Origin: Escherichia coli
GTDB lineage: Bacteria; Pseudomonadota; Gammaproteobacteria; Enterobacterales; Enterobacteriaceae
Strand: one strand, 5' to 3'
Assembly: GCF_045037415.1 (NCBI RefSeq)
Contig: NZ_CP173438.1
DNA: 64,000 nucleotides
The translations under genes and the position numbers were made by a program. Positions 1 through 27,532 of this stretch are shown piece after piece. How positions within the stretch are numbered: the stretch's first letter is position 1; the number at the start of each line of letters is the position of its first letter. The notes below the pieces were generated by a model. It was given only the letters and a program-made list of their open reading frames with translations. It searched no databases and had not been told where the DNA came from.

Positions 1-72
1 GAAGGCAAAGCGCGGTTAACGACTGACCCCGTCAGCGGGCGGCGTGCGCGGTGTTCCGGTTTGACTCCGTGA
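1..72 (+). CDS. 3' fragment of an upstream phage gene (by position possibly terminase small subunit gpM)
   Basis: Open frame from window edge to TGA at 70-72, immediately upstream of gpL; too short to identify. Confidence 0.25.
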   Translation, partial: EGKARLTTDPVSGRRARCSGLTP

Positions 73-111
73 CCGTTTACACCGCGCACCCACCGCCCGA
101 TTTTTTCAGGA

Positions 112-615
112 GTGAACCCCATGAGTATGGTTGCCAGAACTAACCCCGGCCCCGCAGAGGACGACATCACCGACACCGATGATGGCGATACCCGTATTTC
201 AGCGGGTGCATTCTGGCCGGATATTGTGCTGCGCGAGCTGCGTCTGGCGGTACGACTGCCGGGCCGCGTGACCACCTCCCGCCTGCTGCATACCGCCACC
301 GGGGCCATAGCACACGTTACCCGCGAGCTGGAAGCATGGCAGCAGGAACAACAGGCGGCTGGCTATCAGACGCTGGCCGATGTTCCGGCCCCTGTAATTA
401 ACGGAGAAAGCGTCAATCTCTGGCACTGGCGCAATGCTGTTTATACCGCCACACGCGCCCTGATTCTGGAGCGTTACCGCGATGCGGACACAACGGACAA
501 GGGCGACCGCCGGGCGGACGCACTGGATATACAGACATCGGATTTGTGGCGCGATGTGAGCTGGGCCATCTCTGACATTCTGGGACGACCGCGAATGTTT
601 GCGGAGCTGTGCTGA
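112..615 (+). CDS. phage capsid completion / head stabilisation protein (P2 gpL-like)
   Basis: 167 aa ORF; size and position immediately before gpX and lysis genes match P2 L; sequence resembles gpL family from memory. Confidence 0.7.
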   Translation: MNPMSMVARTNPGPAEDDITDTDDGDTRISAGAFWPDIVLRELRLAVRLPGRVTTSRLLHTATGAIAHVTRELEAWQQEQQAAGYQTLADVPAPVINGESVNLWHWRNAVYTATRALILERYRDADTTDKGDRRADALDIQTSDLWRDVSWAISDILGRPRMFAELC

Positions 616-815
616 TGAAAGTGAAGGCACTGGAAGGCGACACCGTGGATTCGCTCTGTTTCCGGTACTACGGCACGACACAGGGCGTCACCGAAAAGGT
701 GCTGGATGCCAACCCCGGACTCTGTCAGCAGGTATTTCTGGACGCCGGGCAGGAAGTGGAGATGCCGGAGCCGGAGAAGAAGAAACGAGAAATGATTCAG
801 TTGTGGGGGGAGTAG
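609..815 (+). CDS. phage tail protein X (P2 gpX-like, LysM-like)
   Basis: 68 aa ORF overlapping end of L; conserved position and size of P2 X. Confidence 0.65.
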   Translation: MLMKVKALEGDTVDSLCFRYYGTTQGVTEKVLDANPGLCQQVFLDAGQEVEMPEPEKKKREMIQLWGE

Positions 816-817
816 CA

Positions 818-1141
818 GTGAGCACCATTCAAACAGGGATCACAGAGCAGGTTATTGCGTGGCTCTTTGACCACCTGCCAACGGTGTATGCAGTAGGCGC
901 GGCGGTCAGCATTTCCGCGCTGATGAGTCTTTATGACGGACGAACACTGGTTCAGACCGTAACGGGATCGCTGGCGTGCGGCGTTCTTGCCATGGCCGTG
1001 GCCGGGTCGCTGCGCTTCTTCGGGATCCCTGAGGATGCAGTGACGTTTTTTGGTGCCTCAATCGGTTTTATGGGCGCAGAGAAAGCACGCGACAAGGTTA
1101 TTGCAATATTTGATCGCAGGGTGAAGGAGAGGAACGAATGA
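818..1141 (+). CDS. putative holin
   Basis: GTG start right after X stop; ~107 aa with 2-3 hydrophobic segments (VYAVGAAVSISALMSLY, LACGVLAMAVAGSL, FFGASIGFM) and charged C-terminus; precedes endolysin. Confidence 0.5.
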   Translation: MSTIQTGITEQVIAWLFDHLPTVYAVGAAVSISALMSLYDGRTLVQTVTGSLACGVLAMAVAGSLRFFGIPEDAVTFFGASIGFMGAEKARDKVIAIFDRRVKERNE

Positions 1142-1530
1142 GCAACACATTTAAATTCAGCAGCCGGAGCGAAAAGAATTTGCAGGGTGTAAATCCTGAT
1201 CTGGTGAAAGTGACCCGACGGGCGCTGGAAATCTCGGAAGTGGATTTTGGTATCACCGAAGGATTGCGCAGTCGTTATCGTCAGAAGCAGCTCGTGACCA
1301 CAGGCAAGAGCCAGACCATGAACAGTCGCCATCTCACAGGGCATGCCGTGGATGTTGTGGCTTATGTCGGCAACCAGGTGTCATGGGAATGGCCGCTGTA
1401 CGAAAAAATCGCAGCAGCATTCAGACAGGCCAGCCAGGAACTGAATATTCCGGTGGAATGGGGCGGCGACTGGAAGACCCTGAAAGACGGACCGCATTTT
1501 CAGTTACCACACGGAGCCTATCCGGCATGA
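1138..1530 (+). CDS. endolysin, peptidase M15-type (L-alanyl-D-glutamate endopeptidase-like)
   Basis: 130 aa; N-terminal pattern (..VNPDLVKVTRRALEIS..DFGITEGLRS..) and H..D..H spacing typical of small phage M15 endolysins; ATGA overlap with holin and Rz. Confidence 0.7.
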   Translation: MSNTFKFSSRSEKNLQGVNPDLVKVTRRALEISEVDFGITEGLRSRYRQKQLVTTGKSQTMNSRHLTGHAVDVVAYVGNQVSWEWPLYEKIAAAFRQASQELNIPVEWGGDWKTLKDGPHFQLPHGAYPA

Positions 1531-1922
1531 AGCTCTGGCCCACGCTTGGCGTCGCTTTCCTTCTGATTACATCCATGCGTCTGTCGTGGTCGCTGGGCCG
1601 GGAGAACGCCAGAAACGAAGCGCAGGCCAGCACCCTGAAAAGTACCGTCGACACACTGAATATCATCAGCGCCGGGGTACAGGATATGCAGCAGGTGCTG
1701 GCTCAGCTCCGCGCGGAAAATCAGCAACGCAATCAGGACGGAGAGGTAAGACGTGAACAGCTACGCAACGATATTGCAAAAGATGAATGCGCCCACGCTT
1801 TGCCTGACGCTCGTTTTACTGACAGGTTGCGCAGGCACGCAGAACGCGCCAGGGCCAGCGCCGTCAGTCCGGCTTATACCGCAGACGCTGACCATGCCGG
1901 TAACGCCTCCCCCCTTCCCTGA
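1527..1922 (+). CDS. i-spanin (Rz / P2 LysB-like)
   Basis: 131 aa, N-terminal TM (LWPTLGVAFLLITSM) followed by coiled-coil-like charged region; overlaps endolysin stop. Confidence 0.6.
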   Translation: MKLWPTLGVAFLLITSMRLSWSLGRENARNEAQASTLKSTVDTLNIISAGVQDMQQVLAQLRAENQQRNQDGEVRREQLRNDIAKDECAHALPDARFTDRLRRHAERARASAVSPAYTADADHAGNASPLP

Positions 1923-2064
1923 CCCACCCACATGGGGAAACCTCGGAATATGGGGCGACCGCCTTCTGGATGCACTGGAAACCTGTAACGCGGATAAACG
2001 GGCCATTGCTGAACTGGATAAGAGAATAGCCGAACTGACACACCAGACGGGAGTAACACAATGA
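1753..2064 (+). CDS. o-spanin lipoprotein (Rz1 / P2 LysC-like), overlapping Rz in another frame
   Basis: Lipobox LLTGC after signal-like segment, proline-rich stretch (PVTPPPFPDPP); start may be ATG 1753 or 1783. Confidence 0.55.
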   Translation: MNSYATILQKMNAPTLCLTLVLLTGCAGTQNAPGPAPSVRLIPQTLTMPVTPPPFPDPPTWGNLGIWGDRLLDALETCNADKRAIAELDKRIAELTHQTGVTQ

Positions 2065-3938
2065 CCAGTAAGAACTTTGCACTGATTACAGCCATGACAC
2101 AGGCTGAACTGACTCAAAAGGTGAATGAACATCTTGCGAAAGGGTGGCATCTTCAGGGGGAGACGCGGGTTGCCTACGAACCCGGCACCCCGTGGTATCT
2201 AATGCAGGCAATGGTGGCCGATGGCACTACAGACATCTCACCTGATTCCCCCCAGCACGGCAGCGTGCCGGAGTGGTATTACGTGGTGGTACTTGCTGGT
2301 CAATCCAATGCCATGTCATATGGTGAGGGAATGCCGCTGCCGGATTCTTACGATGCGCCCCACCCACGCATTAAGCAACTGGCCCGTCGCAACACAGTGA
2401 CTCCCGGTGGTAAAGCATGCGCATTTAACGACATCATTCCGGCAGACCACTGCCTGCATGATGTTCAGGATATGAGCGCACTGAATCACCCGAATGCAGA
2501 CCTGAGCAAAGGGCAGTATGGCTGTGTCGGACAGGGCTTGCATATTGCCAAACGCCTGTTGCCTTACATTCCACAGAATGCCGGGATTTTACTGGTTCCA
2601 TGCTGTCGTGGTGGTTCGGCATTCACCCAGGGCGCGGAGGGGACATTCAGCGAGTCCACAGGAGCCAGTCAGGATTCGGCTCGCTGGGGTGTGGGTAAAC
2701 CTTTATATCAGGACCTGATTTTGCGCACGAAGGCCGCATTGCAGAAAAACCCAAAAAACATGCTGCTGGCCGTATGCTGGATGCAGGGCGAATTTGACAT
2801 GAGCGCCGCTACGTACTCACAGCAACCTCCGCTGTTTACGGCCATGCTGAAACAGTTTCGTGCGGACATTACCGAGTTTAACACGCAGTGTCATGGAGGC
2901 AGAGCGGCAAGTGTGCCATGGATTTGTGGTGACACGACGTATTACTGGAAAAACACCTACGGCACGCAGTACGACACCATTTACGGGGCGTACAAAAACA
3001 GGGAGAGCGACAACGTTTTCTTTGTGCCGTTCCTGACCGATGGTAGTGGCAACAATACCTCCACCAACGCACCAACGGAAGATCCGGATGCTGCAAGTGA
3101 GGGATATTACGGTTCGGCATCCCGAACGAACAAAAACTGGGTATCATCAAATCGCCAGACGCATTTCAGCTCATGGGCGCGTCGTGGCATTATTCCCGAT
3201 CGTATGGCAACCGCTATTCTGAACGTAGCCGGTCGCACCTTAGCCTTCATCAGTGGTAAGGCACCGGAAATCAAACCCTCGCCCGGCGGCGACACGCCAT
3301 CGGGGCCGTCTGAAGATGCATCCGTACGCACAATCTCCCTGTTGCCGACAGCCGGAGATGCTGCTGCGCAGGGCTGGAGCATTAAGAATGGCGGAATTCA
3401 GTTGTCAGAGGGTGTATTTAAGATCACCAAGCAGAGCAATAAAGCCTGGTCCCTGACGCGCCCGGTGGATGACGCAGTCTCCCTGCTGACACGGGGTGGC
3501 AGACTGAGCTGTAAGTTTCGACTGTCAGGCGCACTGACCAACAATCAGTTCGGTCTGGGAATTTATCTGTATACCGATGTAGCGTTACCTGACGTCGTGG
3601 CGATGACCGGGACTGGTAACCCGTTCCTGATGTCGTTCTTCACCCAGACCACAGACGGCAAACTGAATCTGATGCATCACAAGAAAGCAGGAAACACAAA
3701 GTTGGGCGAGTTCGGGAATTACAGTAACGACTGGCAGACGCTGGAGCTGGTGTTCACCGCCGGCAGTGCCACGGTTACTCCGAAACTGAATGGAGTGGCT
3801 GGCCCGGCATTCCAGGTCATAAAAGACAGTCTGACACTGGGGCTGAATGCGCTGACGTTAACTGATATCACTAAAAATGCCGCGTACGGCGTCGATATCG
3901 GCAGCCTGGTGCTGGAAATCAATAATCCCGCAGCATAA
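2061..3938 (+). CDS. prophage cargo protein: DUF1737-like N-terminal domain + SGNH/DUF303-type esterase (NanS-p-like putative sialate O-acetylesterase) + C-terminal beta-rich domain
   Basis: 625 aa; N-terminus ...ITAMTQAELTQKVNEHLAKGWHLQGE... resembles DUF1737; motif VVLAGQSNAMSYGEG resembles the GQSN block of SGNH/DUF303 esterases; located between lysis cassette and tail gene R, where P2 has no gene. Confidence 0.55.
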   Translation: MTSKNFALITAMTQAELTQKVNEHLAKGWHLQGETRVAYEPGTPWYLMQAMVADGTTDISPDSPQHGSVPEWYYVVVLAGQSNAMSYGEGMPLPDSYDAPHPRIKQLARRNTVTPGGKACAFNDIIPADHCLHDVQDMSALNHPNADLSKGQYGCVGQGLHIAKRLLPYIPQNAGILLVPCCRGGSAFTQGAEGTFSESTGASQDSARWGVGKPLYQDLILRTKAALQKNPKNMLLAVCWMQGEFDMSAATYSQQPPLFTAMLKQFRADITEFNTQCHGGRAASVPWICGDTTYYWKNTYGTQYDTIYGAYKNRESDNVFFVPFLTDGSGNNTSTNAPTEDPDAASEGYYGSASRTNKNWVSSNRQTHFSSWARRGIIPDRMATAILNVAGRTLAFISGKAPEIKPSPGGDTPSGPSEDASVRTISLLPTAGDAAAQGWSIKNGGIQLSEGVFKITKQSNKAWSLTRPVDDAVSLLTRGGRLSCKFRLSGALTNNQFGLGIYLYTDVALPDVVAMTGTGNPFLMSFFTQTTDGKLNLMHHKKAGNTKLGEFGNYSNDWQTLELVFTAGSATVTPKLNGVAGPAFQVIKDSLTLGLNALTLTDITKNAAYGVDIGSLVLEINNPAA

Positions 3939-3961
3939 GGAAGAGCAGGAGAGCAAAACAG

Positions 3962-4429
3962 ATGCTTAAGACAAACAGTCTGCGAGAGTCCATGCTTCAT
4001 GGGTGTCGGTGGTGCCAGGCTAATCCCGAGAAATTCACCATTTTCGTGGAGAGCGGCAACATTGAAACGACCGGAGAAGCGCCCTCGTTTGTTTACCGCT
4101 ATCAGATGGTGATGTTTGTCATGGATTACGCCGGAGAGCTGGACGACCTCACGCTGCCGCTGCTGGCGTGGTTATCCGAAAATCAGCCACAGTTGTTGCT
4201 CAATCCGGAGCGTAATCAGGACATCAAATTTTCTGCCGTTATCAATGACGATGACAGCGCCGATCTCCTGTTTACGCTCCCCCTGCGGGAACGCGTTCGC
4301 ATCACGCGCAACAGTCAGGGCACACCGCAGGCAGAACACCTGCCGGAGCCAAAACCCCGTCTGCCTTCTTCCGAAGGCGACTGGTCGCATGTATTCCAGG
4401 ATGTGACGTGGGGTGAAAGCGATGGATAA
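3962..4429 (+). CDS. phage tail completion protein (P2 gpR-like)
   Basis: 155 aa, position and size match P2 R. Confidence 0.7.
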   Translation: MLKTNSLRESMLHGCRWCQANPEKFTIFVESGNIETTGEAPSFVYRYQMVMFVMDYAGELDDLTLPLLAWLSENQPQLLLNPERNQDIKFSAVINDDDSADLLFTLPLRERVRITRNSQGTPQAEHLPEPKPRLPSSEGDWSHVFQDVTWGESDG

Positions 4430-5057
4430 GGCATTCACCCGCGTGGATGAAACCTTTGAGGCTATCCGCGACAGCCTGAATCAGCAGGCCATCAATAACA
4501 TCGCCAGAAAGCTGGCACAGGATTTACGTCGCGCCCAGCAGGCACGTATCCGGTCACAAAAAGCGCCGGACGGGACCGAATGGACACCACGCAGACGCCG
4601 CGTAACCCGGATACAGGAGCGCATTCGCTTTATCTGGAATAACGAAGCACGCACGCTGAAAAACTGGCATCACGACACAGGGAAATACGGGCGAACCATT
4701 ACCGGGTGGGATGAGGATAAAAACAATATCCGCACGTTTTACCGGGATGACATCGACCGTTTTCTGGAAATACGCACCCGGCGCATCAACCAGGACAGCA
4801 CAAAGCGCGTCCCCATGTTCGTAAAACTGCGCACCGCCCGCTACCTGAAAGCCCGTGCAGATGCCTCCGGTGTGACGGTGGGTTACAGCGGCGTGGCCGC
4901 ACGTATTGCACGCGTTCATCAGTTCGGTGAGCGCGATCAGGTTGCGCCGGGCATTTTCACCGATTACCCGGTACGTGAGCTGTTGGGTATCAGCCAGGCA
5001 GATGAGCGCCTGATTTATAACACGGTGCTGGGCCGGATTGCGGAGGCTGTACGGTGA
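4413..5057 (+). CDS. phage tail completion / virion morphogenesis protein (P2 gpS-like)
   Basis: 214 aa, overlaps R end, precedes V. Confidence 0.7.
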   Translation: MKAMDKAFTRVDETFEAIRDSLNQQAINNIARKLAQDLRRAQQARIRSQKAPDGTEWTPRRRRVTRIQERIRFIWNNEARTLKNWHHDTGKYGRTITGWDEDKNNIRTFYRDDIDRFLEIRTRRINQDSTKRVPMFVKLRTARYLKARADASGVTVGYSGVAARIARVHQFGERDQVAPGIFTDYPVRELLGISQADERLIYNTVLGRIAEAVR

Positions 5058-5635
5058 GCGCAGAACTCATGCGACTGCTGAGCAACATCATCCGCACCGG
5101 GATCATCTCTGAAGTTGATGAGAAGTCCTGGCGCGTGCGCGTTCGCAGCGGCGAACTGGAAACAGGCTGGTTGCGCTGGAACACCACGCGCGCGGGAGCC
5201 TTCAATGTGTGGCTGCCGCCATCACCAGGCGAACAGGTGGTAATTGCCTGCATTGGCGGCAACCCGGAAACCGCCATGATAATTGGCAGCCTGTGGAGTG
5301 ATGCCAGTCCGGCCCCCGGCAAAAGCCTGAAAGAAATCGTGGTCAGCGCGCCGGATGGCGCGGTGTTCCGCTACGACGCAGACGCTGGCGCACTGAGCGC
5401 CAGCGGCATGAAAACAGCCACCCTGCAGGCATCCGTCAGCGTGACACTGGATACGCCCGTCGTGGAATGCACAAACCTTCTGAGAACGGCGACGCTTGAC
5501 GTCACAAAAGAGGGAAAGATGAGCGGCAATATCACGCACAGCGGCGGCAATTTCACCTCAAACGGCATTACCGTGCATACGCATAAGCACGGTGGCGTTA
5601 AAGGTGGCAGCGATTCGACAGGAGGCCCGCAGTGA
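5054..5635 (+). CDS. baseplate assembly protein V (spike; P2 gpV-like)
   Basis: 193 aa, GTG start; gpV-like N-terminal OB region. Confidence 0.8.
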   Translation: MSAELMRLLSNIIRTGIISEVDEKSWRVRVRSGELETGWLRWNTTRAGAFNVWLPPSPGEQVVIACIGGNPETAMIIGSLWSDASPAPGKSLKEIVVSAPDGAVFRYDADAGALSASGMKTATLQASVSVTLDTPVVECTNLLRTATLDVTKEGKMSGNITHSGGNFTSNGITVHTHKHGGVKGGSDSTGGPQ

Positions 5636-5982
5636 CAACCCGCTACACAGGAATGAACCCGGACGGGACGGGAAACCTGAACGATATGGAGCACCTGAAA
5701 CAGTCAGTCAGGGACATCCTGATCACCCCGCTGGCAAGCCGGGTTATGCGACGGGAATATGGCAGCCTTGTGCCTGATTTGATTGACGAACCCATGAATA
5801 ACACCACGCGTCTGCAATGCATGAGTGCTGCCGTGATTGCGCTGACACGATGGGAACCCCGCATTGCCCTGGACGCCATCGACGTTGTCTGGAAGGCAGG
5901 AGGCCGCGCCGGGGTGACGCTGTCGGGCACTGTCATGCAGACCATGCAGAATGTTGAATTAACCATCACGCTGAGAGAGTAA
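5632..5982 (+). CDS. baseplate protein W (gp25-like; P2 gpW)
   Basis: 116 aa, GTG start overlapping V stop; matches gpW/GPW_gp25 family features. Confidence 0.8.
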   Translation: MTTRYTGMNPDGTGNLNDMEHLKQSVRDILITPLASRVMRREYGSLVPDLIDEPMNNTTRLQCMSAAVIALTRWEPRIALDAIDVVWKAGGRAGVTLSGTVMQTMQNVELTITLRE

Positions 5983-5985
5983 ATC

Positions 5986-6882
5986 ATGCCTGCTGTTGAT
6001 CTTTCCCAGTTACCGGAACCCGCCATCATCGCGGAGCCTGATTTTGAGGCAATTCTGGCTGACACAAAGGCCATGATGATTGCGTCCTATCCTGCCGAAC
6101 AGCGTGAAGCCGTCTCCGCCGCGCTGGAGCTGGAATCAGAACCCCTGAACGTTATCGCTCAAACCATGTCGTTTCGTGAAATGCTGTTACGCCAGCGGGT
6201 TAACGAGGGCGCACGCGCCTGCATGTTAAGCCACGGTTCAGGGACAAACCTGGACAACCTCGCGGGCAATATGAACACAAAGCGCCTGGTTATCACTCCG
6301 GCAACGGATACCACCGACGCGGTGATGGAGAGCGACACCTCGCTGAGACTGCGGGCGCAGCGGGCGTATGACGGCCTGAGTGTTGCTGGCCCGTCAGGTG
6401 CATACGAGTATTTTGCACGCAGCGCCAGCGGTCTGGTGCGTGATGCGCGGGCCATCAGCCCGTCTCCGGCCTGTGTGACGGTTTCCATTCTGTCCACTGA
6501 AGGCGACGGCACAGCAACGGAGGCGTTGCTTAATACCGTTCGCGCCGTTCTGAATGCAGAGGATACCCGCCCGGTGGCCGACCGACTGACCGTACAGAGC
6601 GCCAGCATCGTGACATGGCGGCTGAATGCAAAACTGTACTTTTACCCCGGCCCGGAATCCGAACCTATTCTGGCTGCGGCTGAATCGTCGTTCAGGAAGT
6701 GGCTGGCTGAGCAGGGGCTTATTGGTCAGGACGTGGCGTTGTCAGCCATTGCTGCCGCACTTCATGTGCACGGCGTGCAACGCGTGGAGATAATCGAACC
6801 CACACAGAATATGGCCATCAGCGACATACAGGCGGCGCGCTGTGAGTCATTCACCATCAGCGAAGGTGGGCGTAATGAGTAA
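5986..6882 (+). CDS. baseplate protein J (P2 gpJ-like)
   Basis: 298 aa, conserved baseplate J position and size. Confidence 0.85.
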   Translation: MPAVDLSQLPEPAIIAEPDFEAILADTKAMMIASYPAEQREAVSAALELESEPLNVIAQTMSFREMLLRQRVNEGARACMLSHGSGTNLDNLAGNMNTKRLVITPATDTTDAVMESDTSLRLRAQRAYDGLSVAGPSGAYEYFARSASGLVRDARAISPSPACVTVSILSTEGDGTATEALLNTVRAVLNAEDTRPVADRLTVQSASIVTWRLNAKLYFYPGPESEPILAAAESSFRKWLAEQGLIGQDVALSAIAAALHVHGVQRVEIIEPTQNMAISDIQAARCESFTISEGGRNE

Positions 6883-7405
6883 TTCACTGTTACCGCCATC
6901 AGCCAGCAATTTCATGCGTTGCGCCGAAGCTGTCGGAGCGCGCATTACAGACATCCCGGTAGACCTCAACACGCTGTGGTCACCGGACACCTGCCCGGTG
7001 CATCTGCTGCCTTATCTCGCCTGGGCATTTTCCGTTGACCGCTGGGATCGCAACTGGCCGGAAGAGACAAAGCGACAGGTGATTCGTGATGCATGGCTGA
7101 TACACCGACACAAAGGGACCATCAGCGCACTGCGCCGGGCCATTGAGCCGCTGGGATACCTCATTCGCGTGTCTGAGTGGTGGGAGTTCGGCGGAGAACC
7201 GGGAACATTTACCGTTGAAGTCGGCACGCTGGACAGTGGCGTGACGGAGGAAATGTATCTGGAAATGGAGCGGTTGATTGCTGATGCCCGCCCGGTCAGC
7301 CGCCACATGACAGGGCTGAATATCATTCAGGAGATTCAGGGAGATATTTTCGCGGCGGCAGCAACTTACGACGGCGAAGTCATTACCATTTATCCGGACG
7401 ATTAA
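6875..7405 (+). CDS. tail protein I (P2 gpI-like)
   Basis: Start ATG at 6875 with RBS GAAGGTGG overlapping J stop; 176 aa. Confidence 0.8.
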   Translation: MSNSLLPPSASNFMRCAEAVGARITDIPVDLNTLWSPDTCPVHLLPYLAWAFSVDRWDRNWPEETKRQVIRDAWLIHRHKGTISALRRAIEPLGYLIRVSEWWEFGGEPGTFTVEVGTLDSGVTEEMYLEMERLIADARPVSRHMTGLNIIQEIQGDIFAAAATYDGEVITIYPDD

Positions 7406-7407
7406 GC

Positions 7408-16529: not shown

Positions 16530-17713
16530 CAGGCACCTCCCAGCACCGCAAATGCGGGACCAAAGAATTCATCAGTAAACGTCTGGTAAAGCTCCATGTC
16601 TTCCAGCGGGGGAACGGGCGTATATTTGTAGCGAATACGCACACGCCCCTGACGTAAATCCGTGGTGCCGTTATCCACCACGTCATACCAGCACTCCGCG
16701 CCAATCAGTTTCCCGGCAGTAACCAGCGAATCCAATTTTGCCCTGATGGCACTGATAACATCCTTCACGTTCGCAGGCGTCAGTGGACTGTCGATGGTTT
16801 CAAACTGCGCTTCCGCAATTGAATCAGCCAGCACCTGTGCGGTTCGGGTATACACCTCAAAGATGTAGGCGTTCGTTTCCGGTGTGCGGTTGCCCCAGAA
16901 GCGGAACCCGTTACGACGAATAATGGTCGTGATTTCTTTGTTGTTGAGGCTGTTGGCATCACTGTCTTCGGCCTGTAACGACCAGAACACATGCCTCGAC
17001 ATCCCCAGCACATTTTTAACCGGAACGTTGGACAGCGATTTGTGCCAGCCCTGCTCATGGTCAATGTACGCACGAAGGCCGCACGCATAAGCAGGCGCGG
17101 GGAACGTTTCGTTTTTGCCACTTTTCGGGTTGTAGGCGATGAAGTCAGGCCATAAGAGCATCACCTCACGTTCGTTGAATTTCTGGCGGTAGGTAATCGC
17201 CTCAGCCATCGTGTTACAACCATGACATGTGGCATACACAAACGCGCGCAGTTTACCCGCAATCACGCACAGGGATTTTGTCACCGCCTCCGTGTCCAGC
17301 TCCGGCGCGGCCAGAATACGCGGACGGTATCCGATGCTTTCATCCTGCTCTGCAACAAGCAGCGCATACATCCCCGTATAGCTGCCGTCAGATTCAGAAC
17401 CACCGATAACCAGTTGATCCTGCGTCCTACCGCCTTCTTCTTTGTGTTCAGCCACGCGAACGACGATCACTTTTGTGCTCACCTGGTCTGCGATAGCCTT
17501 AAGCGCACGATAAAGCGTCCCCGTAGTCCCGCATTTTCCCAGCACGTCATTGACGCGGGTCAGCAGTGTGGGCTTGTTCAGCGGGAACAGCTCCGCATCC
17601 GCATCATCCGCCGTTGCCACGATACCGATAACGCTGGAATCAACATCATTAATCGCTGTTACCAGGTCGGTACTTTCCGTGACACGGGCACCATGAAAAC
17701 GAGTTTCACTCAT
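16529..17713 (-). CDS. tail sheath protein (P2 gpFI-like)
   Basis: 394 aa; motifs ...ADDADAE.FPLNKP.L...GTL..L.AIADQ...; ...QGWHK.LSNV...; ...DGFRFWGNRT...NYTRTAQV.AD..AEA match gpFI as recalled. Confidence 0.9.
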   Translation of the reverse strand: MSETRFHGARVTESTDLVTAINDVDSSVIGIVATADDADAELFPLNKPTLLTRVNDVLGKCGTTGTLYRALKAIADQVSTKVIVVRVAEHKEEGGRTQDQLVIGGSESDGSYTGMYALLVAEQDESIGYRPRILAAPELDTEAVTKSLCVIAGKLRAFVYATCHGCNTMAEAITYRQKFNEREVMLLWPDFIAYNPKSGKNETFPAPAYACGLRAYIDHEQGWHKSLSNVPVKNVLGMSRHVFWSLQAEDSDANSLNNKEITTIIRRNGFRFWGNRTPETNAYIFEVYTRTAQVLADSIAEAQFETIDSPLTPANVKDVISAIRAKLDSLVTAGKLIGAECWYDVVDNGTTDLRQGRVRIRYKYTPVPPLEDMELYQTFTDEFFGPAFAVLGGA

Positions 17714-17870
17714 AGCTTCAGCCCCTTGTATCCGTTAAATGATTCGGCAACAATCATCACCCACCACGCGCGTAATCTCACCCCTGCGCCGTTCTCCCGC
17801 CACGGCGACAACAAAAAGCAGTAACCCCCTCCGCACGCACATGCGACCATGCCGCACAGGGAGGGAGCAG

Positions 17871-18980
17871 ATGACCGACACCACCATGCAATTGCTCAGT
17901 CAGGGCACAGACCCCGTGAAAATGCCGGATTTTGATATTCTCGCGGAGGGTAAAACGCTGTCAGGCGTGGCAGAGCGCCTGATGAGCCTGTCACTGACCG
18001 ACAACCGGGGATTTGAGGCGGACCAGCTCACCATCACGCTGGATGATGCGGATGGTCAGTTGCAGCTACCGCCACGGGGCGCGCGCCTGACGGTTCTCAT
18101 TGGCTGGAAAGGAGAACCGCTGACAGAAAAAGGCACTTACATTGTTGATGAAATCGCTCACGAAGGACCGCCGGACAGGCTGACTGTTTCAGCCAGAAGC
18201 GCAGATTTTCGGGATGAATTTAACGTTAAACGTGAGGTGTCCTGGCATGATGTGACCGTTGAGCGTGTGGTATCCGCCATCGCTCATCGGTATGGTCTGA
18301 AACCGCAAATCAGCGAAATGCTGATGGATATCGAAATCGACCACGCCGACCAGACCGAAGAAAGCGACATGTCCTTCCTTACGCGCATGGCGGAAATGCT
18401 GGGCGCAATCACCACGGTAAAAAGCGGTAATCTGTTATTCATCATGCCCGGCGGTGGCGTGAACGCACAGGGCCAGCCGTTGCCATCGTTTGCCATCACA
18501 CGCAGCAGCGGCGATCGCCATCAGTTCCGCATTGCTGACCGCGAAGCGTATACGGGGGTACGCGCTTACTGGCTTGATCTTAATTACGGGAAAAAGAAAA
18601 AAGTCAGCGTGAAACGCCGTAAACCGCCAAAACCCAAAAAGGAGAAAAGCAGCAGCCGCGAAGGTGATTATATGGAAGGCGCGGAAGGCAATGTGTTTGT
18701 GTTACGCAAGACTTATCAGAACGAGCAGGCAGCAAGACGCGCAGCGGCGGCAAAGTGGCAGCAACTACAACGCGGAGCCGCATCATTCTCCATCACGCTG
18801 GCGCGTGGACGTGCAGAACTCTACCCCGAAATGCATGGCACGGTAACAGGATTTAAAAGCGAGATTGATAATCAGGACTGGATCATTGCAAAAGCCGAGC
18901 ACACCATTGATAACAGCGGTTTTACCACGCAGCTTGAGCTTGAGGCAAAAATCCCGGAATGGATAGCGGAAACAGAGTGA
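17871..18980 (+). CDS. tail protein D (P2 gpD-like late control D family)
   Basis: 369 aa from ATG 17871 with RBS GGGAGGGA; gpD-like sequence; ORF-track start 17739 is probably an upstream extension. Confidence 0.85.
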   Translation: MTDTTMQLLSQGTDPVKMPDFDILAEGKTLSGVAERLMSLSLTDNRGFEADQLTITLDDADGQLQLPPRGARLTVLIGWKGEPLTEKGTYIVDEIAHEGPPDRLTVSARSADFRDEFNVKREVSWHDVTVERVVSAIAHRYGLKPQISEMLMDIEIDHADQTEESDMSFLTRMAEMLGAITTVKSGNLLFIMPGGGVNAQGQPLPSFAITRSSGDRHQFRIADREAYTGVRAYWLDLNYGKKKKVSVKRRKPPKPKKEKSSSREGDYMEGAEGNVFVLRKTYQNEQAARRAAAAKWQQLQRGAASFSITLARGRAELYPEMHGTVTGFKSEIDNQDWIIAKAEHTIDNSGFTTQLELEAKIPEWIAETE

Positions 18981-19020
18981 GCAACTTAGAATAGGCAGCA
19001 CCACGTTAAGGGAGGTCGCT

Positions 19021-19281
19021 ATGTTCCGTTGTCCGCTTTGTGGCGCATCTGCCCGTATCCGCACCAGTCGTCCGGAAAATGATTCAAACACCGTGCGGCA
19101 AAAGTATTACCAGTGTAACAATCTGGAATGCGGCGTATGCTTCTCAACACTGGAAGCTTTCCATAAATTCACATCAAAACACGCCTCCGGCGTTCACTCT
19201 TCAGAAGGTATCCCGTGGCATGATCTGCCAGCTTCACACAGGGGAAACAATCAGATGAGTTTGCCTTTATCTCAGAATTAA
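19021..19281 (+). CDS. late-gene transcriptional activator, Ogr/Delta zinc-finger family
   Basis: 86 aa; MFRCPLCGASARIRTSR...YYQCNNLECGVCFSTLEAF with the Cys-x2-Cys...Cys-x4-Cys pattern of P2 Ogr. Confidence 0.85.
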   Translation: MFRCPLCGASARIRTSRPENDSNTVRQKYYQCNNLECGVCFSTLEAFHKFTSKHASGVHSSEGIPWHDLPASHRGNNQMSLPLSQN

Positions 19282-19369
19282 CAGGCAGAATTGCCGGAGT
19301 AACAAAAAAGCGATAGATTACGTGCGGGTGCCTTTCGGCTGATGGTCGGAGGGAATACCCGAAGGCCAG

Positions 19370-19555
19370 ATGTGGAAAGGCCCCGAGTCAACTTTAACGT
19401 TAACCCGAGGCCCTAACCATCTACCCTCAGCAAGTGATAGGTTAGCGCCTCCCCGAAAAAGGAGCAAGCGCTATGTCGCAAAAATCGCTTACGGCCATCA
19501 CATTCTGCGTGACGGCAATCCTCATCATCTGGATGCTGCACGGTTCGCTGTGTGA
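19370..19555 (+). CDS. mok-like overlapping reading frame of hok locus (translational coupling frame)
   Basis: 61-codon frame starting ~100 nt upstream of and overlapping the hok-like ORF in a different frame, as in hok/mok/sok loci. Confidence 0.4.
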   Translation: MWKGPESTLTLTRGPNHLPSASDRLAPPRKRSKRYVAKIAYGHHILRDGNPHHLDAARFAV

Positions 19556-19613
19556 AATACGGATGAGTTTCTGGGGAGCGGAGTTTGCGGCGTTCTTACA
19601 GTGTAAGCAGTAA
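19473..19613 (+). CDS. Hok/Gef-family type I toxin (46 aa)
   Basis: MSQKSLTAITFCVTAILIIWMLHGSLCEIRMSFWGAEFAAFLQCKQ: single TM then conserved SLCEIR and E.AAF motifs of Hok/Gef; below the 60-aa ORF-track cutoff, found by reading the DNA. Confidence 0.7.
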   Translation: MSQKSLTAITFCVTAILIIWMLHGSLCEIRMSFWGAEFAAFLQCKQ

Positions 19614-19706
19614 GGAAACCGCGACGGGGAAGGCAACTTCCCCGTCAATCGGTTGCCAGGGTAAAGGTCGAAAAGGCACCCTATTTCCAGTTGACGTGAA
19701 CAACAA

Positions 19707-22655: not shown

Positions 22656-23267
22656 CTACTTACGTTGATCATCTACCGTGACGCCTTGCGGCGGGGTGAA
22701 GGTAAATTTCGCTGCATCCACAGCCCCATTTTGCTGGGATTTCAGCTGATAACTGCTGCGCTGATCGTCCTGCTCCACCGCGCTAAACTGATGGATTGTG
22801 CCATCACGTCCCACGTTAATGGTGAACTGCTTCAGATTGCCATTGCTGGCTTTCGGCGTCAGAACAAAGTCATCGCCATTCTGTTTGATATTGTACTGCT
22901 GCCAGTCGCTGGACTGGTTGCGGGCAATCAGCATAAACGGCGTATTACCGGTGGCATCTTTCAGCCAGGTTGCCGTAGCTTGCTCAACGAACGGGTTATA
23001 GAACCACAGTGTTTTACCGTCAGAAACCAGAATGCTTTCATCAGGTTGAGTCATATGCCAGTTGAATAAGTTTGGACGTTTCACCCACAGATCGCCCTGA
23101 CCTTCCTGCACCGCCGCGCCGCTACCGTCAGTCACTTTTTGTGTGAAGCTGGCGTGGAAGCTGCTGACTTTATCCAGGCGGCTTTTCAGATCGCTTGCGG
23201 CATCAGCCCAAACGCTGCTTGCTACTAAGCTTGAGAGTAATGCACAGGTGATGGCAATTTTTTTCAT
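22656..23267 (-). CDS. lolA: outer-membrane lipoprotein carrier protein LolA
   Basis: [34 protein letters not shown]... matches LolA. Confidence 0.95.
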
Positions 23268-23379
23268 CATTATTCCTCAAATTACGTCACTCCCGACCGG
23301 GAGCTCCCTCTACTCTCTATTCCAGGCTAATAATCAGCTTGAGGAAAGAAGAAAATACTGAATTTTCAGTTACCAGATT

Positions 23380-23425: not shown

Positions 23426-26400
23426 TTAGTCAAACGGCGGTGGGGCCAGCACTTCACGATTACCGTTGTGCCCCTGTTCGCTGACAATCCCCTGCGCTTC
23501 CATCTGTTCGATAATACGCGCTGCACGGTTATAACCAATGCGGAACTGACGCTGTACGCCAGAAATTGATGCTTTGCGTTTTTCAGTGACAAACTGCACC
23601 GCCTGATCGAACAACGGATCCAGCTCTTCAGCGCCATCGAAACCGCCCGCGCCACCTTCGCTTTCGCTGTCGGAGGTGATGCCATCAACATACTGTGGGC
23701 GACCACGCGCTTTCCAGTCCTGCACCACGGCATGAACTTCTTGATCGCGAACAAAAGCACCATGGACACGTACCGGCAAAGTGGAGTTCGGCCCAGAGTA
23801 GAGCATATCCCCCATACCCAGCAGTGATTCCGCACCAGCCTGATCAAGAATGGTACGTGAGTCAATCTTACTGGATACGGTAAAGGCGATACGGGTCGGA
23901 ATATTCGCTTTAATCAGACCAGTAATAACATCAACCGATGGACGCTGCGTTGCCAGTACGAGGTGGATACCCGCGGCACGAGCTTTTTGCGCCAGACGTG
24001 CTATCAGCTCTTCCACTTTTTTACCTACCGTCATCATCAGGTCGGCAAATTCGTCCACCAACACCACTATGTACGGTTCTTTTTTCAGCACCGGATGCTG
24101 CGCATCCATACTATCACCCGGCTTCCAGTACGGGTCTGGAATCGGACGCATCATGCGATCGGCTTCAGCAATTTTTTCGTTATAACCCGCCAGATTACGC
24201 ACACCCAGCGCAGACATCAGTTTATAACGACGCTCCATCTCGTTAACACACCAGCGCAGCGCGTTGGCGGCATCTTTCATATCAGTAACAACTTCCGTTA
24301 ACAGGTGCGGAATGCCTTCATAAACCGAAAGCTCCAGCATTTTCGGGTCGATCATGATGAAACGCACATCTTCTGGCTGTGCTTTATAAAGCATGCTCAG
24401 GATCATCGCGTTCACCCCGACAGACTTACCGGAACCGGTAGTCCCCGCAACCAACAAGTGCGGCATTTTCGCCAGATCGGCAACCACCGGCTCACCGGCG
24501 ATATCTTTACCCAGCACCACGGTTAATGGCGACGGATTATCGCGGAATTTGGCGTTATCCAAAACCTCGCGCAGATAAACGGTTTGTCGTTTTTTATTCG
24601 GTAACTCCAGACCTACATAGGGTTTGCCAGGAATAACTTCAACGACACGCACCGCCACCGTCGAAAGTGAACGGGCAAGGTCACGTGACAAGTTAGAAAT
24701 GCGCGCCGCTTTTACGCCCGGTGCCAGGTTCAATTCAAAGCGAGTGATAACTGGCCCCGGAGAGTAATTGACAACATCGGCTTTAATACGGAAATCAGCC
24801 AGACGCGCTTCTACCAGGCGCGCCATTTGTTCAAGCGCAAAGGTATCTACCGGCTCCACTTCGCTCGGCGGCGGTGTCAGCAAATCCAGAGAAGGCAGTG
24901 GCGTCGTCGGTTTATGCAACGGACGGCTGTCGCCATTACGCATCAACAGCGGATGAAGCAGGGTATCCTGCGGCTGTGGCGCAACTGGCTGTTGCGGCTG
25001 CTGATATTGCGGCTGTGGTACAACCGGCTGCTGCGGCTGCTGATACTGCGGCTGCTGTGTAACCGGCTGTTGTGGCTGCTGATACTGCGGCTGCTGTGCA
25101 ACCGGTTGTTGTGGCTGCTGATATTGCTGCTGCGGTGCAACCGGTTGTTGCGGCTGCTGATACTGCGGCTGCGGTGCAACCGGTTGTTGCGGCTGCTGAT
25201 ATTGCTGCTGCGGTGCTACCGGTTGTTGCGGCTGCTGTACAGGTTCAACAATTGGCGTAAACAGCGGTTCGTGTGGACCATCATCCAGCAACGCTTTCAT
25301 TGGCGAAAATTCAAAATCATCCAGCGAGAACGGATTCGCCCCAGCCGGTTGTTCGCCGGAATAACGTTGTTGTTGAGTTTGAGCAAACTGACGAGCCAGT
25401 TCTGCCTCTGCCGCAGCATCTGCATCTTCTGTGTTCACGGGCACATCATGTTGATACTGTTCGCCATAGCGTTGCTGCTGCGTCTGGGCGAACTGACGTG
25501 CCAGTTCATCCTGCTGCATCGCATCGATTTCATCATCGTTGTACTGATCGCCAGAATCGTACTGATTACGCTGGGCTTCACGGGCTTTTTCTTCTGCCGC
25601 ACGCTGTGAGGGCAGCTTAATACCGTAAGACGCCAGTTCACGACGAGTTGGCACGCGGATGCGTTTCGGTCGTGGCAACTGCGGGCCAATCCCCTCTTTG
25701 ACCTGCGGACGCGGTCCACCGCTATTTGCCAGACTGAAGACTGGCGCGGCAACGGTTGCGGCAGCCCCCGTCGCCAGTGTCGCTTTTTTCACGCCAGATG
25801 CCAGCGGAGAAACGGCGGCAGCGGCTTCCACTGGAGGTACTGCTGCAACAGAAGGTGCTTTTAGCGAAGATTTGATCGGTTCTGGTTCTTTAACAGGTTC
25901 TGGAATCGGTTGATACCAGGCCGCAAGTTGTTCGCGTTCACGGGCTCGCTTCTCTTCCACTTCTTCAAAGTAGTAAAGCGGCGGACGCGTGGGTTTTGTC
26001 TCTTCTACAACGGGTTCAGGCTCCACAACAGGCTGCTGTTCAACAGGTTGCGGCTGTTGGTACAACGGTTCCTGAGCGGCTGGCTGCTGATAAGTTTGCT
26101 CAGTCTGGTATGTAGACTGTGGAGCAAAAGTGGATTGCTGCTCTTCGGCTTGCCAGGCGTTACCTGCCACCGCTTGTTCTGGCGCAGGGGCGTAATACGG
26201 CTGTTGCGCAGGCTGTTCCGCCGCAGTTGCGTAATACGGTTGCTGAACAGGTTGTTCCGCCGCAGGAGCGTAGTAAGGTTGTTGCGCAGGTTGTTCAGCT
26301 GCAGGTGCATAATACGGCTGCTGTGGCTGTACTGGTTGTTGCAGCGGCTCATTATATTGCACTGCAGGCTGCGCATATTGTGGCTGCTGTGGGTAACCTT

Positions 26401-27532
26401 CCGGTGCAGGAGCAATAACCGGTTCTCCCGTTTGCGGCCCCGGTACAGGCTGCCAGGCTACTGTAGATTGCGCAGGTGGAACATCAACAGAGGCAACTGG
26501 CGGCGTCTGAGTCACAGGTTCAACCGGTGCAGCCCAGCTTTGTGTCGCCGTGGTAGCAGCAGCTGCTACAGCAACAGGTTCGGTAATTGGCGCACCGTTT
26601 AATAATGGATCGTACTCGTCATATTCTGGCTGCGTTGCACGATTGCCCGAAAAGAGGACGTCGTCAGGGTCGGCAGCCACACCGCGTGCAGTGTAGGTAA
26701 TCTCTTCGTCATCATCCATCCGCTTACCGGAGAACAACGCAGCGTCTGTTTGCCGCCCCATCGGATTAATGAATTTTTCCGCCAACCGTTTACGACGCGC
26801 TAGCGCGCCGCGAAGAATACGGGCACGGCGTGATTCATGCTGTTTGCCGTGATTTTCATCTTCATACTCTTCGTCGTCTTCATACTCATCTTCATCGACC
26901 CAGGTATCATCGCGACGGGTACGATTACTGGCGAAGGTAAGAATATTTAAAATCCAGCCGCCGAGTTTTTCAGCAATGGTCACCCATGACCAACCGGTGA
27001 ACAGCGTCAGGCCCGCTGCCCAAACGCAGAGCAGCGCAATAGTTCCCCCGCTACTGTGTAGCAGTGGTTGTAGCGTAGTGCTTAGTAAGCTGCCAATGAC
27101 GCCACCGGAGGCAAAATACCAGATATCGTCAGCGTTGATTGCCGCCAGACCACAGGAGGTAAGGATGAGCGCCAAAACGCCAATGATGCGTAGCGAAACG
27201 GCAAAATAATCAATGTATTCGTCGCTGGACTGATGACGCCAGGCAAACCAACAACCGCCGACAATAATGACGGGAATGGTGTAAGCCATCACGCCAAAAA
27301 TAAAGAACAGCGTATCTGCCAGCCACGCACCGGGCATCCCACCTAAATTATGGATAGGTTCATGCCAGGCCGTTTGCGACCAGCTGGGGTCCGAAGGGTT
27401 AAAGCTTAGTAAGGCAGCCATCAACCAGACGGCAAACAGGACAATAAGGATCAGCAACGCCTCCAGAAGGCGGCGGCCGCTACTTAACTTTGTCAATGTG
27501 ACTTCTTTGTCTTCAGTGTATTCCTGGCTCAA
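23426..27532 (-). CDS. ftsK: DNA translocase FtsK (1368 aa)
   Basis: [33 protein letters not shown]..., N-terminal TM domain, Q/P-rich linker, C-terminal motor with Walker A GTTGSGKS. Confidence 0.97.
24955..25250. repeat. in-frame tandem 39-bp repeats encoding ([13 protein letters not shown])n in FtsK linker
   Basis: About seven near-identical 39-bp units visible in DNA. Confidence 0.85.
26150..26345. repeat. second in-frame repeat block in FtsK linker (..[13 protein letters not shown]..)n
   Basis: Repeated ~39-bp units visible in DNA and protein. Confidence 0.75.

Follow-up and report, generated by a model that had tools for sequence, protein, structure and literature searches.

The ftsK gene in the window (the whole stretch of Escherichia coli DNA that was analysed, 64,000 nucleotides of contig NZ_CP173438.1) harbours two in-frame arrays of 39-bp repeats, array A and array B, both located in the linker of the encoded protein. 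Array A is the published typing locus ms07/CVN001 and array B is ms06, and the 39 residues by which FtsK of the window exceeds FtsK of K-12 are one unit of array A plus two units of array B. The polymorphism is already known and routinely used for strain typing. ftsK is an essential gene, and the linker sits between the membrane/divisome domain and the DNA-pumping motor. In all likelihood, the arrays form a pair of in-frame VNTRs in a length-tolerant, disordered tether, in which unit number changes by slippage or unequal recombination and is nearly neutral. The features of the region are listed in Table 1.

Table 1. Positions of ftsK, its repeat arrays, the typing amplicons and the opposite-strand ORFs in the window
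Feature	Coordinates	Strand	Description
ftsK coding sequence	23426..27532	minus	TTG start, 1368 aa; from the ORF list
FtsK linker, aa 192-878	24899..26959	minus	Pro/Gln/Ala/Glu-rich; holds arrays A and B
Array A, aa 766-856	24965..25237	minus	Seven 39-bp units of 13 codons each; from the in-frame unit table
Array B	26174..26323	minus	Second 39-bp array; four units encoding PAAEQP[A/V]QQPYYA
ms07 amplicon	24872..25497	minus	In-silico PCR, brackets array A; 626 bp = allele 7 (K-12: 587 bp = allele 6)
CVN001 amplicon	24876..25352	minus	Primers of PMC11773471, flanks array A; 477 bp (K-12: 438 bp)
ms06 amplicon	26055..26433	minus	In-silico PCR, brackets array B; 379 bp = allele 4 (K-12: 301 bp = allele 2)
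Antisense ORF, 260 aa	24827..25609	plus	Low complexity, LLRLLILRL...-type; over array A
Antisense ORF, 230 aa	25910..26602	plus	Over array B

The ftsK gene and the linker of its product

The window keeps the gene order lrp-ftsK-lolA-rarA-serS, and the ftsK genes annotated in SK1144, S9 and other strains match its ftsK at 100% identity. A Pfam search placed FtsK_4TM at aa 20-191, FtsK_alpha at aa 879-979, the motor FtsK_SpoIIIE at aa 987-1200 and FtsK_gamma at aa 1303-1363. All four families (4TM, alpha, RecA-like motor and gamma winged-helix) were found far above their cut-offs, which identifies the product as a member of the FtsK/SpoIIIE DNA translocases. In addition, the C-terminal 512 aa of the protein matched the structure 2IUS in the PDB with an E-value of 0. 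This crystallised C-terminal construct of E. coli FtsK starts at the residue corresponding to aa 857 of the window, the first residue past array A.

Between FtsK_4TM and FtsK_alpha (aa 192-878), the Pfam search of the window FtsK gave no match. This part, for which there is no solved homologue either, is the linker, which has been described as unstructured, of low complexity and PQ-rich (PMC5357621; PMC5391129). Its length differs among species, and it aids divisome contacts and full FtsK activity (PMC5357621; PMC5391129; PMC3870252).

Besides the arrays, the linker contains a 14-aa motif twice, at aa 711-724 (25361..25402) and aa 676-689 (25466..25507), both on the minus strand; the two copies precede array A by 40-90 residues. 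In nearly all of the ftsK loci examined from Enterobacteriaceae, each copy can be recognised as ELARQFAA.QQQRY, although the linker is described as being without conserved features. The sequence might act as a short linear interaction motif.

Both arrays contribute to the difference from K-12

The units of array A encode QQPQQPV[A/T/V][P/Q]Q[P/Q]Q[Y/D]. Tandem Repeats Finder reported this array at 24968..25237 with a period of 39, 6.9 copies, 90% matches and a score of 400, so that the 13-aa/39-bp tandem unit which the preliminary description had flagged at this site was recovered by the program as well as by in-frame reading. Array B was reported with the same period, 3.8 copies and 77% matches. 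Its clean units occupy aa 410-448 and are flanked by degenerate ones at aa 397-409 and 449-461. Array B is unrelated in sequence to array A and lies about 1 kb away from it, upstream in the gene (about 360 residues). It had been overlooked in the preliminary description, and it holds two thirds of the length difference.

The ftsK gene of K-12 MG1655 is annotated with 3990 nt and encodes 1329 aa, 39 aa fewer than the 1368 aa of the window; both lengths had been given correctly from the outset. The extra 39 residues had been attributed to three units of the repeat now called array A. When the two proteins were aligned, which had been proposed as a check, 12 substitutions and two gaps were found. 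One gap in the K-12 protein comprises 13 aa and lies inside array A, while the other comprises 26 aa and lies inside array B. Array A thus has seven units in the window and six in K-12, and array B has four and two, respectively. The in-silico PCR products (Table 1) likewise give one additional unit in array A and two in array B; K-12 indeed has another repeat number, but the attribution to three units of a single array does not hold. The unit content of array A differs as well, with VAQQPQY, VTQQPQY and VVPQPQY occurring in the window and VPPQPQY in K-12. Therefore neither of the two alleles is simply an expanded form of the other.

The arrays are published typing loci

The loci ms06 and ms07 reportedly belong to the panel of Gorge et al. 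2008, J Clin Microbiol 46:1026. We took their primers and allele ranges from a later user of this panel, in which both are listed as E. coli/Shigella MLVA loci with 39-bp units (PMC8215070, Table 1 therein). The published ladder of ms07 runs from 392 to 821 bp in 39-bp steps with alleles 1, 3, 6, 7, 8, 10 and 12, and that of ms06 from 301 to 379 bp with alleles 2, 3 and 4 (PMC8215070). In-silico PCR was performed with up to one mismatch allowed per primer. The ms07 primers bind at 24872-24891 and 25478-25497 with 0 and 1 mismatch, respectively, and the product of the window falls on the published ladder (626 = 392 + 6 x 39). In the lineage of the window, three of the ms06/ms07 primers have one mismatch each.

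CVN001, a generic E. coli MLVA locus of the Lindstedt scheme, is likewise assigned to ftsK (PMC11773471, Table 1 therein). Its primer sites in the window, 24876-24897 and 25332-25352, have no mismatches, and they define the same locus as ms07 with other primers; we found no difference between CVN001 and array A. Flanking primers, a 39-bp unit, a product size on the ladder and a copy number that varies among strains were all found for array A, and around array B the ms06 primers enclose a repeat of 39 bp for which alleles 2-4 are known. There is no substantive difference between the arrays of the window, which represent alleles 7 and 4, and the loci of the ms07/ms06 panel.

In-frame VNTRs also occur in extended or disordered parts of other proteins of the envelope and of division; those of tolA, for example, are rich in Lys, Ala and Glu. 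The tolA locus (CVN004, SENTR1) resembles the ftsK arrays in having polymorphic repeat units of whole codons in a low-complexity spacer and in its use for typing, but it is another gene encoding another peptide (PMC2430564; PMC11773471). A 39-bp VNTR in ftsK is also used for typing Salmonella under the names SENTR2 and STTR7 (PMC2430564). This locus has the same period and, as seen in Salmonella enterica subsp. arizonae, the same position in ftsK as array A, which makes it orthologous; it differs in belonging to another genus and in its copy numbers.

Variation among E. coli genomes

We compared 24 E. coli ftsK genes, namely those of the window and K-12 and 22 further loci picked across the similarity ranking. 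Outside the ms06 and ms07 amplicons, the sequence was 3102 nt long in all 24 genes. Array A comprised 2-11 units and array B 2-4 units, the length of FtsK ranged from 1303 to 1407 aa, and all of this variation was located in the two arrays. The VNTR-like polymorphism that had been proposed for the linker of this gene is thereby borne out, and the differences in FtsK length within E. coli are not annotation errors, truncations or strain-specific innovations.

Array A also varied in ways other than the number of single units. Duplications of whole blocks were seen, of five units in L022 and of two units in L009, L010 and L016, which suggests out-of-register recombination or slippage across several units. 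Furthermore, four of the 24 strains had a partial unit. In MS8345 (L004), N66 (L005) and A0 34/86 (L013) this was a 5-aa QQPQY unit, and in LF82 (L003) an 8-aa deletion had fused two units. With such partial units, MLVA sizing in 39-bp steps would yield fractional alleles (+15 or +24 bp). In addition, the 24 genes contained four distinct 7-unit alleles of array A, equal in size and different in sequence. Due to this size homoplasy, fragment sizing under-resolves the locus compared to sequencing.

For a census we drew evenly spaced samples of 60 rows from 5,426 complete E. coli genomes, one sample for each array. In the array A sample, 48 of the 60 rows could be sized, the other 12 being aligned only in part, and the spans ranged from 606 to 879 nt for the 801-nt query. 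Seven units were found in 26 of the sized rows and six in 15, while few rows had 2, 5 or 9 units or a variant shorter by 24 nt. In the array B sample (59 of 60 rows sized), four units were present in 21 rows, three in 19 and two in 19. The seven and four units of the window are therefore the commonest states in these samples and K-12 merely carries another allele, so that the term expansion, which had been used for the window, is a misnomer. Alleles were stable within lineages; all K-12 derivatives had 6+2 units and O157:H7 strains had 7+2.

Short reads may fail to resolve tandem repeats that total 270 bp, and the seven-unit array or the length of 1368 aa might then be the product of repeat expansion or collapse during assembly. 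That assembly errors do occur in the genome collection is suggested by chromosome H87 (strain ES1), in which the ftsK span is 4069 nt and thus not a multiple of 3. However, sequence with at least 99% identity to the window was found in 546 complete genomes for the 801-nt array A stretch, in 560 for the whole 4107-nt gene and in 548 for the array B stretch, and many of these genomes, which come from independent laboratories, were 100% identical. Moreover, the units of array A are imperfect, and most of them carry unique substitutions that anchor the assembly. We consider an artefact extremely unlikely, and the worry about misassembly raised in the preliminary description is excluded by the recurrence of the same sequence in these genomes.

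A match to ftsK was absent from one of the 5,426 genomes, and 8-9 matching places were on records labelled as plasmid. Together with the H87 span, these cases look like assembly or labelling oddities.

Opposite-strand ORFs

Long spurious ORFs on the opposite strand had been ascribed to the repeats. Two such ORFs are present (Table 1) and are by-products, as had been stated, but their cause lies in the codon content of the whole linker. Both are in the frame that is codon-aligned with ftsK, in which stops can come only from the sense codons TTA, CTA and TCA. These three codons are missing from sense codons 642-949 and 311-557, resulting in stop-free runs of 306 and 245 codons that are far longer than the repeat arrays. 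The long ORFs are thus explained by the linker-wide lack of TTA, CTA and TCA and not by the repeats alone. An opposite-strand gene was annotated in none of the 24 RefSeq records inspected. On the basis of the codon content and the annotations, a genuine antisense gene was rejected.

Tandem repeats within genes are a classic substrate of phase variation, and with long ORFs on the opposite strand a change in repeat number might toggle either FtsK or an overlapping antisense gene. Against such a contingency locus, a unit of 39 nt cannot shift the reading frame, and all 24 ftsK alleles were in frame, including those with partial units of 15 or 24 nt. ftsK is moreover essential, and the antisense ORFs encode low-complexity strings of Leu and Arg. 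We regard this explanation as next to impossible, and a phase-variable locus was rejected because the 39-nt units are internal to the coding sequence and the frame is never shifted.

Arrays in other Enterobacteriaceae and selection on the unit

One genome per species was scanned with a degenerate DNA pattern encoding HPLLMRNGD, with which the folded part begins; this yielded 120 loci, almost all from Enterobacteriaceae. In about half of these loci, a clean in-frame tandem array was found directly upstream of HPLLMRNGD, with a period that depends on the lineage. The period is 39 nt in Escherichia coli, E. whittamii, Salmonella enterica subsp. arizonae and many Citrobacter, 36 nt in Leclercia, Siccibacter and Kluyvera, 42 nt in Kosakonia pseudosacchari, a Superficieibacter species and Pseudenterobacter, and 45, 51, 57, 60 or 96 nt in other lineages. 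The array of S. enterica subsp. arizonae (L070) has 4.5 copies with 97% matches and ends 12 nt before the HPLLMRNGD codons. No clean array, only degenerate PQ-rich sequence, was present at this site in Klebsiella pneumoniae, the Enterobacter cloacae complex, Buttiauxella and Cedecea.

At the second site, which corresponds to the position of array B and lies about 1.0-1.15 kb further upstream, lineage-specific arrays were found as well, for instance of 72 nt in Klebsiella and of 42 nt in Shimwellia. Those Citrobacter loci that extend far enough upstream showed no repeat of the array B type; the Salmonella locus, being too short on that side, was left out. At both sites, most units of the arrays contain one aromatic residue.

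Among 45 distinct E. coli array A units, synonymous differences were frequent and pN/pS was 0.13, in what is a rough test as the units are not independent. Amino-acid changes occurred only at positions 8, 9 and 11 of the unit. Given the conserved unit peptide and the recurrence of P/Q/Y-rich arrays at the same two sites in many genera, this type of tract is probably kept by selection, even if its exact copy number is not; its period and number appear to drift.

In a protein search, aa 640-1010 were compared with representatives clustered at 50% identity. This search is coarse, since E. coli and Salmonella fall into one cluster and the top matches are mostly fragments. Degenerate PQ-Y repeats were present at the array A site in one relative with 81% identity (P0002), and PQ-Y repeats were not seen in the distant FtsKs among these representatives.

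In the Escherichia albertii type strain NBRC 107761 (L027), upstream of the match at 4334-4359, a run of 11 alanines and then two degenerate units replace most of array A, and Tandem Repeats Finder found no 39-bp array at this site of that strain.

Origin and consequence of the length variation

We propose that copy number in both arrays would shift by replication slippage or by out-of-register homologous recombination between units, and that such changes would often take in blocks of several units. As a unit has exactly 13 codons, a gain or loss always concerns a complete peptide module, and the frame is kept. Among strains, the length of the resulting tether would vary by as much as about 100 residues, and this would have little or no effect on function. 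That the variation is nearly neutral is suggested by the wide natural range of unit numbers and, by analogy, by an allele swap in Salmonella. In S. Enteritidis, an indel in the linker repeats (84 bp/28 aa, reported as 2/9 repeats) was swapped between two strains, and no tested phenotype changed (PMC6137255).

Alternatively, the copy number of the PQ-Y unit could be selected for the reach or the multivalency of the tether, with effects on FtsK assembly, on contacts to the divisome or on dimer resolution that depend on lineage or niche. According to the literature, FtsK reaches full activity only with its linker, which is in contact with FtsZ/Q/L/I (PMC5357621; PMC3870252). Purifying selection on the unit peptide would also fit adaptive tuning of length, as would the recurrent birth, across Enterobacteriaceae, of arrays at these two linker sites in which each unit has one aromatic residue. 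However, between 2 and 11 units occur naturally within one species and the essential function is not lost, and in the sampled rows the alleles follow clonal lineage and not host or source. Moreover, the Salmonella swap was without effect in the assay used (PMC6137255), and a clean array is missing from the array A site of K. pneumoniae, the E. cloacae complex and others. Taking both sides together, selection on length appears improbable.

It is conceivable, though unlikely, that the Pro/Gln tract with one tyrosine per unit is a selected multivalent module, the strength of which would be tuned by copy number. Such a module might for example be a 'sticker-and-spacer' tract that helps FtsK to concentrate locally or to form hexamers at the septum, or a docking motif for a divisome partner that is repeated several times. 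Compatible with this reading, the unit peptide is conserved despite synonymous turnover, arrays with periods of 36-96 nt and a periodic aromatic residue recur at the same two linker sites in many Enterobacteriaceae, and array A directly adjoins the folded motor.

Under the preferred reading, a pair of nearly neutral VNTRs in a length-tolerant tether, the finding is real but ordinary and matters little beyond bookkeeping. The natural ftsK alleles do provide a ready series of tether lengths beside the motor domain, which could be used to ask whether the length of the linker or its PQ-Y valency bears on chromosome dimer resolution.

Neighbouring genes and prophage

In the window, lolA (22656..23270) directly follows ftsK. 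E. coli SK1144, which shares the ftsK allele of the window, has an IS1397 transposase gene after ftsK (L002, 4672..5107), at the place where other genomes have lolA.

A P2-like prophage lies beside serS at about 1..19700 of the window, with ORFs for instance at 12629..15472 and 16529..17713 on the minus strand and at 17739..18980 on the plus strand. In K-12, serS is presumably followed by dmsA. The matching region of strain S9, which has an identical ftsK, is annotated with Hok/Gef, ogr, a gpD-like protein and tail sheath, tail tube, tape measure and baseplate genes. It also contains a recombinase flanked by opposed tail-fibre-assembly genes, an arrangement that probably forms an invertible segment for host range. 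The ORFs of the window follow the same pattern as this prophage region of S9.
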